Translations under genes and position numbers: made by a program
Origin: a virus
IMG/VR virus record: IMGVR_UViG_3300009514_001427
DNA length: 64,000 bases
Direction: 5' to 3' (one strand)
The notes under the pieces: model-generated
Databases searched by the model: none
Told to the model about the DNA's origin: nothing
Seen by the model: the letters and a program-made list of their open reading frames with translations, nothing else
Shown: in pieces, positions 63,320 through 64,000 of the stretch
Position numbering within the stretch: position 1 is the first letter of the stretch
How the letters are laid out: every line of letters begins with the position of its first letter

Positions 63320-64000
63320 TCAAAGCAAATCGAAACGACCATTCATGACTGCCTCGATCTTGCCTGTCTTAGTTCCGCGTCGATGATCTACAACCCTTTG
63401 TTTCTTGAAGTTATATGTACGAATCTTCCCACTTCGACATCGATCTCCAAGCTGAGCATGCCTTTCAGCATTCTTTTCAGCTCGATCTTTAGCCTCTTCA
63501 ACTTTGCGAACTCTTTGTTCTAAAACGTCACGAGCCCGTTTCTTGTTTTGAGCTTGACTTCGACCATCAATGAAAACAGAAACCTTCGTGGGACGATGGA
63601 TCATCCTGACTGCCGTATCGGTTTTGTTTTTATGTTGACCACCTGGACCACTGCCTTTGGTGGTATGGATTTCGATGTCGTCGTTTTTGAGAAGATACGT
63701 GGTTTTCGCGGCTAAGGGTAAGACCGCGACTGAAACCATTGAGGTATGAACTCTTCCGCCACGCTCTGTGGGAGGGACACGTTGGACGCAATGCTTTCCT
63801 TCTTCATGTTGGAATTTCTGTATTGCATCTGTTCCCTTTACTAATAGCGTGACCAAGCTGTCTCTGGTCTCGATAACCTCAACGTTGAGGTTTCACTGGC
63901 TGGCGTACTTTGTATAAGCTCCAGCAAGATCGTGGATGAAAAGCTTGGAATCTTTTCCGCCTTCACCCGAATGCACTTCGACTACAATTTCCTCGTACAT
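63320..64000 (-). CDS. prfA: class-I peptide chain release factor, RF1-like (5' partial, continues beyond window) with in-frame TGA at 63883..63885
   Basis: GGQ motif GSGPGGQHKNKTDTAVRMIHRPT; RF1-type PPT (P-x-T) tripeptide in CVQRVPPTERGGRVHTS; upstream segment EIVVEVHSGEGGKDSKLFIHDLAGAYTKYASQ-TGA-NLNVEVIE in the same frame. Confidence 0.75.

Follow-up and report, generated by a model that had tools for sequence, protein, structure and literature searches.

In bacteria, release factor 2 (RF2) regulates its own synthesis: the RF2 gene, prfB, contains an autoregulatory programmed +1 frameshift site at codon 26, where a Shine-Dalgarno (SD)-like element accompanies CUU UGA C. To our knowledge, gating of release-factor synthesis by a stop codon has been known only for bacterial RF2. 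In-frame read-through of a stop codon is exemplified by Qbeta, in which the leaky UGA of the coat/A1 protein is read through by tRNA-Trp. Here we describe a gene that recalls both systems, located at the very end of a 64,000-nt stretch (hereafter, the window) of the IMG/VR virus record IMGVR_UViG_3300009514_001427. The gene is predicted to encode a phage release factor of the release factor 1 (RF1) type, is interrupted by an in-frame TGA at codon 36, and belongs to a family whose members nearly all have an early stop codon as a gate, in the form of a frameshift cassette with UGA, UAG or UAA, of two such cassettes in tandem, or of an in-frame UGA.

Across 12,753 bacterial genomes surveyed in 2025, no gating of RF1 was found, and UAG never served as the gate: among 8,164 prfB genes, the gating stop was TGA in 98.6% and TAA in 1.4% of the cases and TAG in none, and prfA carried no programmed frameshift (PMC12421855). 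Like prfB, the window gene is interrupted early by a stop codon, at which synthesis of the full-length product would compete with termination, and most of its relatives bear the leader open reading frame (ORF), the GGAGG 3 nt upstream, the CTT and the stop. Unlike prfB, the window gene has no frameshift, no CTT and no SD-like element, its stop being in frame, and the encoded factor is of the RF1 type whereas the gate codon is specific to RF2. Furthermore, TAG cassettes are common in the phage family but never found in bacteria (PMC12421855). The gene shares with Qbeta an in-frame UGA followed by A, an extension in the same frame and the lack of a dedicated suppressor. However, in Qbeta the product ending at the stop is the major functional protein and read-through is minor, whereas the corresponding product of the window gene would be a useless 35-mer; moreover, what is gated here is the gene for a termination factor.

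Release factors have also been described in phages. Jade phages, which use code 4 (TGA recoded), carry RF1, a suppressor tRNA, a tryptophanyl-tRNA synthetase (TrpRS) and recoded lysis genes (bioRxiv 10.1101/2021.08.26.457843). As in those phages, the RF1-type factor considered here adjoins tRNA genes and would plausibly boost termination at UAA and UAG. In contrast, the Jade RF1 module keeps to the standard code, has no internal TGA and occurs together with the suppressor tRNA, TrpRS and recoded lysis genes, none of which was seen in the window or the flanks of its relatives. Both RF1 and RF2 are listed among the translation genes of huge phages by Al-Shayeb et al. 2020 (PMC7162821); their genes and genomes are of the type considered here. 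Recoding does not figure in the main text of that paper, and the GenBank records are unannotated. In the searchable literature, we found no description of recoding in phage release-factor genes, nor of UAG-type cassettes or an RF1-type gene with a conserved UGA in frame. The prfB frameshift, leaky UGA read-through and the presence of release factors in huge phages were all known, and what is added here is a stop-gated RF1-type phage factor.

The window gene is complete (Table 1). Its minus-strand translation from the window edge runs MYEEIVVEVHSGEGGKDSKLFIHDLAGAYTKYASQ, TGA, NLNVEV...GKHCVQRVPPTERGGRVHTS...GSGPGGQ...GRFDLL, TGA in a single frame throughout, with 35 codons from the ATG to the in-frame TGA and 190 codons between it and the terminal TGA, 226 codons in all. 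In every close relative, AAGGAG or AGGAG precedes the same N-terminus and the ATG stands at exactly the same point; in one of them (L001; L numbers denote family loci), the stop of the upstream gene precedes the start of the release-factor gene. We therefore consider the ATG at the window edge to be the true start. A preliminary description of this DNA, made from the letters without database searches, had reported an in-frame TGA in a release-factor-like minus-strand frame, argued that the frame continues through the TGA without a frameshift, and labelled the product RF1-like because of its PPT tripeptide. The first point is confirmed by translation, Pfam and alignment, the second by the context CAG TGA A with frame 0 kept, and the third by the RF1 decoding residues and by scores that favour RF1 over RF2 both among profile models and in the Protein Data Bank (PDB). 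It had also taken the gene to run past the window, which proved wrong: judging from the SD and ATG of the relatives, the gene starts at the edge and domain 1 is absent.

By its sequence, the product is a predicted RF1-like release factor lacking domain 1. The 226-residue read-through product matches the Pfam families PCRF (PF03462; 85.5 bits, 5.6e-24, cut-off 24) and RF-1 (PF00472; 89.5 bits, 1.8e-25, cut-off 35). The best full-length models are those of RF1 (NF001859, 229.7 bits; TIGR00019, 219.7 bits), followed by RF2 (154.4), PrfH (75.4) and ArfB (29.8), although the RF1 equivalog cut-offs of 400 (NF001859) and 423 (TIGR00019) are missed and the match covers only positions 105-332 of the 347 in the RF1 model. 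The alignment to RF1 and RF2 that had been proposed as a check likewise places RF1 first, with residues 106-332 of Thermus thermophilus RF1 aligned at 165 bits compared to 96-111 bits for RF2 chains in the PDB. Because domain 1 is missing and the equivalog scores are not reached, we regard the protein as RF1-like and not as an orthologue of prfA. The RF1 decoding residues are nevertheless kept: in the T. thermophilus alignment, G14 and D17 correspond to G116 and E119, Q73 to Q181 and T86 to T194, and P76-P77-T78 aligns with P184-V185-T186. PPT, Gln73 and Thr86 are invariant in the family alignment (A1). An AlphaFold (AF2) model of the stop-free homologue P0006 (pLDDT 89.8) superimposes on domains 2-4 of ribosome-bound RF1 with a TMq of 0.91 and an rmsd of 2.1-2.5 Å.

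Other derivatives of class I release factors are more distant. PrfH lacks domain 1 and ArfB lacks the decoding domains, whereas the window protein retains the full RF1 decoding apparatus and matches ArfB over the GGQ stretch only. The protein contains a PxT motif and stays far below the cut-off of the PrfH equivalog (TIGR03072; 75.4 versus 166.65 bits), and the P0006 model has a TMq of 0.65 to PrfH compared to 0.91 to RF1. The RtcB partner gene was not noted in the flanks of the relatives, in which no exhaustive search for RtcB was made.

A protein search uncovered a large family of short (~220-230 residues) RF1-like proteins, the genes for which lie on contigs 150-580 kb long and on viral contigs from IMG/VR. 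The closest relatives are annotated by automatic gene calling as N-terminally shortened fragments of 139-190 residues. The window gene falls into a clade of 7 unique sequences from several samples and independent assemblies (the window, L001/L033, L034, L078, L079, L080/L081 and L082), which is monophyletic in a neighbour-joining tree and whose members are 58-72% identical to the window protein. All 7, that is, every member that could be retrieved, have TGA at the corresponding position, codon 34 or 36. Both the preceding codons (CAG, CAA, AGC, AGA, GCC and ACC) and the following ones vary, the contexts being CAG TGA AAC in the window, CAG TGA AGC in L001/L033, CAA TGA AAC in L034, AGC TGA AAC in L078 (a 498-kb contig), AGA TGA AAC in L079, GCC TGA GGA in L080/L081 and ACC TGA AAC in L082. 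Likewise, the terminal stops of the 7 genes are TGA, TGA, TAG, TAA, TAA, TAG and TAA, whereas the internal codon is invariably TGA. Synonymous divergence (dS) within the clade ranges from 0.8 to saturated, and the ratio of nonsynonymous to synonymous divergence (dN/dS) is 0.04-0.18 in the 33 codons preceding the TGA and 0.04-0.27 in the 60 codons that follow, indicating that both halves are translated in this frame. Since the TGA is invariant despite saturated dS and varying flanks, it appears to be under selection, and both error and decay are ruled out as its origin; the comparison thus makes it very probable that the internal TGA is a selected recoding signal.

In stop-free homologues, the column of the TGA is occupied by H, L, S, N, Q or K, and in T. 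thermophilus RF1 by Met138. Codon 36 corresponds to the first loop residue after helix alpha5 (L34 in P0006), at the helix-loop junction. This is an ordinary variable residue, and the insertion of one amino acid would preserve the register. The variability of the column excludes a conserved Trp, Gly or Cys at this point.

The in-frame TGA of the window clade is one of several solutions to what seems to be a common design. We classified ~60 unique family loci by hand and with a script and found an early recoding site in ~57 of them (~95%). The commonest arrangement consists of an SD and an ATG leader ORF of 4-57 codons that ends in CTT plus a stop, with the body of the release factor in the +1 frame and beginning just 5' of GEGG; as in the architecture of Escherichia coli prfB, an SD-like GGAGG lies 3 nt upstream of the CTT in many of the cassettes. 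Leader-type +1 frameshift sites read CTT TGA N in 20 loci (L008, L041 and L042, cGGAGGtttCTTTGAC; L055, cGGAGGagcCTTTGAG), CTT TAG N in 14 (L047, ccGGAGGtatCTTTAGT) and CTT TAA N in 1 (L068). In other loci, the frameshift site is internal, at codon ~38-49 after a direct start (6 with TGA, 1 with TAG and 1 with TAA), as in L100 from the genome of Pyxidicoccus fallax (CTT TAG). Overall, the frameshift gates comprise TGA, TAG and TAA in the ratio 26:15:2. In-frame gates are formed by TGA in 14 loci, namely, the 7 of the window clade, L035 and L036 (codon 7 in both), L018, L039, L014/L087, L088 and L089, by TAG in 1 (L006) and by TAA in none. Three loci (L003, L005 and L040) show no recoding. At the 15 in-frame TGA sites (L088 has 2), the base following the stop (+4) is A in 12, C in 2, G in 1 and U in none; within the window clade, UGA-A occurs in 6 of the 7 and UGA-G in 1. 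On the tree, loci gated by UGA are intermingled with those gated by UAG, and their RF1-type decoding motifs are indistinguishable. Because ~57 of the ~60 loci are gated, canonical GGAGG, CTT and stop cassettes included, stop-codon gating can be considered the norm for this phage factor, and because nearly all family loci are interrupted by an early stop, we view the window TGA as the read-through variant of the usual gate of the family.

Loci with frameshift cassettes fall among L004-L069, L083-L086, L092-L096, L100 and L101. In some family members, PPT is replaced by other tripeptides, SPT in L046 and PKN, PPN, PDN and PHL among L004, L018, L052, L075, L010 and L090, and the tripeptide loop of LR745208.1 is shortened (VQRTSNGRIHSS); judging by these variants, their carriers may differ in stop-codon specificity. 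A scan of GTDB genomes yielded only distant copies, in metagenome-assembled genome bins and myxobacterial genomes, and no close relative of the window gene.

The best phage matches in GenBank are unannotated genomes of the huge phages published by Al-Shayeb et al. (LR756511.1, LR756504.1, LR756501-3 and LR745208.1), and a gate, either a frameshift cassette or an in-frame TGA, is present in all 5 of the records examined. In LR756511.1 (positions 413470-414941; L086), from a 595-kb phage, ATG and 10 codons are followed by CTT TAA C, 15 codons without a start, CTT TGA C and the release-factor ORF, such that synthesis of the factor appears, from this arrangement, to need 2 successive +1 shifts at tandem cassettes. 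LR745208.1 has an internal GGAGGGG-CTT-TGA-C, and in-frame TGAs are found at codons 39 and 52 in LR756501.1 (L088; 735 kb), at codon 52 in LR756502.1 (L089) and at codon 44 in LR756504.1 (L087). The latter 3 records, with in-frame TGAs in their short release-factor genes, are among the largest published phage genomes. A code-4 check on the AT-rich phages of 636-735 kb with in-frame TGAs gave coding densities of 0.855 versus 0.887 over 50 kb.

Collectively, these observations are best explained by programmed read-through at UGA-36 by a near-cognate tRNA, with the gate sensing RF2, a reading suggested by the sequence comparisons to which we assign a probability of roughly 55%. Ribosomes would initiate at the strong SD and ATG, and most of them would stop at UGA-36 through the action of host RF2, freeing a 35-residue fragment incapable of release-factor function. 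A minority would decode UGA as sense and continue in frame to the 226-residue factor, with near-cognate tRNA-Trp as the most likely decoder in this leaky UGA-A context. Only the read-through product could decode stops, because the tip of alpha5 (residues 12-17) precedes the TGA whereas PxT and GGQ follow it. The output of the factor would be low and would rise with declining efficiency of termination at UGA, a matter of RF2 activity in relation to ribosome load, and the purpose of the gate would be to sense or to limit termination capacity. The near-cognate tRNA, RF2 as the competitor and this purpose are all presumed. Two hallmarks of programmed read-through are present, namely, a conserved in-frame stop with continuing constraint and a leaky UGA context in which +4 is not U. 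UGA is described in PMC5289835 as the leakiest bacterial stop, with termination strengthened by +4U, and the same source cites Engelberg-Kulka 1981 for the misreading of UGA-A by tRNA-Trp (PMC5289835). Additional capacity for termination at UAA and UAG would be a plausible use of the factor; TAG accounts for 29% of the gene ends in the window, and the gene lies within a tRNA island. The finding is also relevant to the way in which giant phages seize control of translation termination. Among the explanations offered in the preliminary description, programmed read-through dependent on UGA termination is the best supported, considering the TGA kept in the 7 clade sequences and the leaky UGA-A context. 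Its suggestion that Trp is inserted is plausible, although the column is variable (H, L, S, N, Q, K or M) and holds no conserved Trp. The evidence does not lead to autoregulation in the strict sense, which it had also proposed, since UGA should not be read by a factor of the RF1 type.

Several points weigh against programmed read-through. Both the read-through and the identity of the inserted residue are deduced from sequence. An RF1-type factor behind an RF2-specific codon offers no obvious feedback logic, and a strong SD upstream of a gate that passes a few percent of ribosomes seems wasteful. No stimulatory element was found beyond the +4 purine: conserved RNA structure 3' of the TGA was not detected in the clade (consensus fold -1.3 kcal/mol, no covariation), single-sequence folds downstream of the TGA have z-scores of -0.4 to -1.9, and a 9-bp hairpin directly after the UGA of the window is not conserved. 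A suppressor tRNA or a UGA-reading tRNA-Trp variant may sit beyond the window and the flanks searched, and the leakiness of UGA is argued from bacteria in general.

Other explanations of the internal TGA fare less well. A lone in-frame stop in a single sequence most often reflects a pseudogene, a sequencing or assembly error, or a selenocysteine codon. Here, however, the same TGA recurs in 7 independent and diverged sequences, dN/dS is far below 1 before as well as after it, and no further lesions are present, which rules out both a sense codon that would emerge on resequencing and a decaying pseudogene, the outcomes that the preliminary description had named as fatal to its proposal; in addition, there is no conserved SECIS-like hairpin, and the column is neither a conserved Cys nor catalytic. 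Taken together, these 3 origins are extremely unlikely. Alternatively, the gene might yield a split protein, in which an N-terminal peptide of 35 residues and a C-terminal fragment with an initiation site of its own assemble or act apart, as could be concluded from the gene callers, which give only the C-terminal ORF (139-190 residues), and from the purifying selection on both halves. Yet no conserved start codon or SD was found after the TGA, the first in-frame start candidates varying in position and type across the clade, and in the absence of a conserved restart signal termination followed by reinitiation was rejected. Moreover, the frame is strictly continuous, and the C-terminal fragment would be missing two elements of the domain-2 fold, strand 1 and helix alpha5, so that we deem a split protein very unlikely. 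A frameshift of the prfB type fails on the window gene itself, in which CAG TGA A is not accompanied by CTT or an SD-like element and the ORF stays in frame 0. A switch of the genetic code deserves more consideration: a UGA-decoding tRNA, with anticodon UCA or as a tRNA-Trp variant, could be encoded outside the window, the RF1-like gene being one of a few TGA-containing genes awaiting it. Code-4 phages carry RF1 together with a suppressor tRNA (bioRxiv 10.1101/2021.08.26.457843; PMC10746230), the window gene lies inside a large tRNA island extending past the window, and detection tools often miss suppressor tRNAs (bioRxiv 10.1101/2021.08.26.457843). Furthermore, tRNA-Trp was seen neither among the 16 tRNAs of the window nor in the flanks of the clade members. 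On the other hand, the code-change genes of Jade phages, RF1 included, keep the standard code (bioRxiv 10.1101/2021.08.26.457843), and TrpRS beside the release factor, a hallmark of code-change modules, was not seen in the window. The coding density of the window does not gain from reading TGA as sense (0.920 versus 0.921 with code 11). Its 76 gene ends comprise 30 TAA, 24 TGA and 22 TAG, with 8 of the TGA stops overlapping the start of the next gene by 4 nt, in agreement with the earlier view that other genes of the window do use TGA as a stop, and the terminator of the release-factor gene is itself TGA in the window and L001. When the window was compared with 13 related loci by tblastn under code 4, a test flooded by shadow-frame alignments, homology in the true frame crossed a TGA in the release-factor gene alone; of the 3 top-identity spanning matches considered outside it, near 35059, 48134 and 56357, all were judged extensions over gene boundaries and not recoded genes, with only the alignment at 56357 examined closely. 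Finally, no tRNA with anticodon UCA was found among the 16 window tRNAs, as already stated in the preliminary description, or in ~90 kb of clade flanks (L001, L034, L078, L079, L080/81 and L082; ~150 kb of clade sequence with the window), nor among the tRNAs of L037. As far as 64 kb can show, the window thus uses the standard code; partial or late-gene recoding of TGA, raised earlier as a possibility, receives no support in it, and a code switch is unlikely.

True autoregulation is the remaining contender. The phage factor itself would read UGA, with broadened or omnipotent specificity, and the gate would work as in prfB but by read-through, the abundant factor ending its own synthesis. The stop of the bacterial cassette always matches the encoded factor, with TGA or rarely TAA and never TAG (PMC12421855), whereas the cassettes of relatives with PPT use UGA (20 leader, 6 internal), UAG (14 and 1) and UAA (1 and 1), the gate types being interleaved on the tree and the decoding motifs alike. 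However, the residues that reject G at position 2 and accept G at position 3 are all of the RF1 type (the Thr of PxT and the equivalents of Gln181 and Thr194), and both profile and structure scores favour RF1 over RF2, making such autoregulation quite improbable. In its widest form, the phage factor would read all 3 stops and every gate of the family would be genuine autoregulation by an omnipotent bacterial-type factor, a proposal about which we are similarly sceptical. More generally, either host RF2 or RF1, and not the phage factor, is what the gate reports on, or the specificity of the phage factor extends beyond UAA and UAG, the second option being the doubtful one.

If gating is indeed the function of these stops, huge phages would possess a stand-alone terminator without domain 1 that is wired to sense the termination capacity of the cell at a chosen stop, whether UGA, UAG, UAA or 2 in tandem. 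The family offers recoding research a natural variant series of one gate, and poses the puzzle of why an RF1-type factor listens to an RF2-specific codon. It also has a practical side: gene callers split or shorten these genes, leaving fragments of 139-190 residues and unannotated GenBank records, and phage release factors are consequently under-counted and mis-described.

Table 1. Features of the predicted release-factor gene and its surroundings in the window.
Feature	Position	Strand	Evidence or remark
RF1-like factor gene without domain 1 (predicted), both TGAs included	63320..64000	-	translation, Pfam, alignment, relatives' starts
Start codon ATG	64000-63998	-	exactly on the window end
Codons 1-35, covering the initial beta-strand of domain 2 and its helix alpha5	63896..64000	-	T. 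thermophilus RF1 alignment
GEGGKD, tip of alpha5; corresponds to RF1 Gly116/Glu119 (U1 recognition of the stop codon)	63967-63950	-	
In-frame TGA, codon 36; putative recoding/gating site	63893..63895	-	context CAG TGA A
Codons 37-226: remaining domains 2/4 and domain 3	63323..63892	-	
PPT tripeptide P76-P77-T78, counterpart of the RF1 PxT anticodon motif	63767..63775	-	alignment
GGQ motif G120-G121-Q122, peptidyl-tRNA hydrolysis loop	63635..63643	-	
Terminal TGA	63320..63322	-	TAA two codons on
tRNA fragment (5' 28 nt; acceptor and D arm)	63313-63286	-	directly after the release-factor stop
HNH endonuclease ORF	62767-63231	-	3' end overlaps tRNA-Pro(GGG)
tRNA-Pro(GGG), complete	62709-62781	-	
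tRNA island	38324-62781	-	16 genes, all on the minus strand, small ORFs between
APRT-like phosphoribosyltransferase	61134-61655	-	auxiliary metabolic gene
875-residue protein with major-vault-protein domains	48132-50759	-	MVP_shoulder 1.7e-23, Vault_3 1.7e-9
Glutamine synthetase	33653-35044	-	auxiliary metabolic gene; Gln-synt_C 2.3e-72
ORF of 3808 codons	18530-29956	-	no internal stop of any kind

The neighbourhood of the gene is rich in tRNA genes. The tRNA island, which contains neither tRNA-Trp nor a UCA anticodon, probably continues past the window, judging from relatives such as L001, in which 23 tRNAs are found in 20 kb. In L037 and L078, an intact tRNA-Pro follows the release factor directly, and it seems from this comparison that insertion of the HNH endonuclease gene truncated a tRNA-Pro paralogue in the window. 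A group I intron or a split tRNA as the source of the tRNA fragment beside the release-factor gene was dismissed, as Rfam gave ordinary tRNAs only and no intron.

Among the other genes of the window, that for the vault-domain protein is unusual for a phage-like genome, and its product is 67% identical to a protein of L084. The APRT-like gene adjoins the release-factor gene in L080, too. Finally, the tRNA and release-factor islands of the relatives contain genes for IS605 OrfB/TnpB-like (Cas12f-like) proteins and a LAGLIDADG endonuclease (L078, 5978-7276 and 16610-17836; L082, 1866-3029), and look like hot spots of mobile nucleases.

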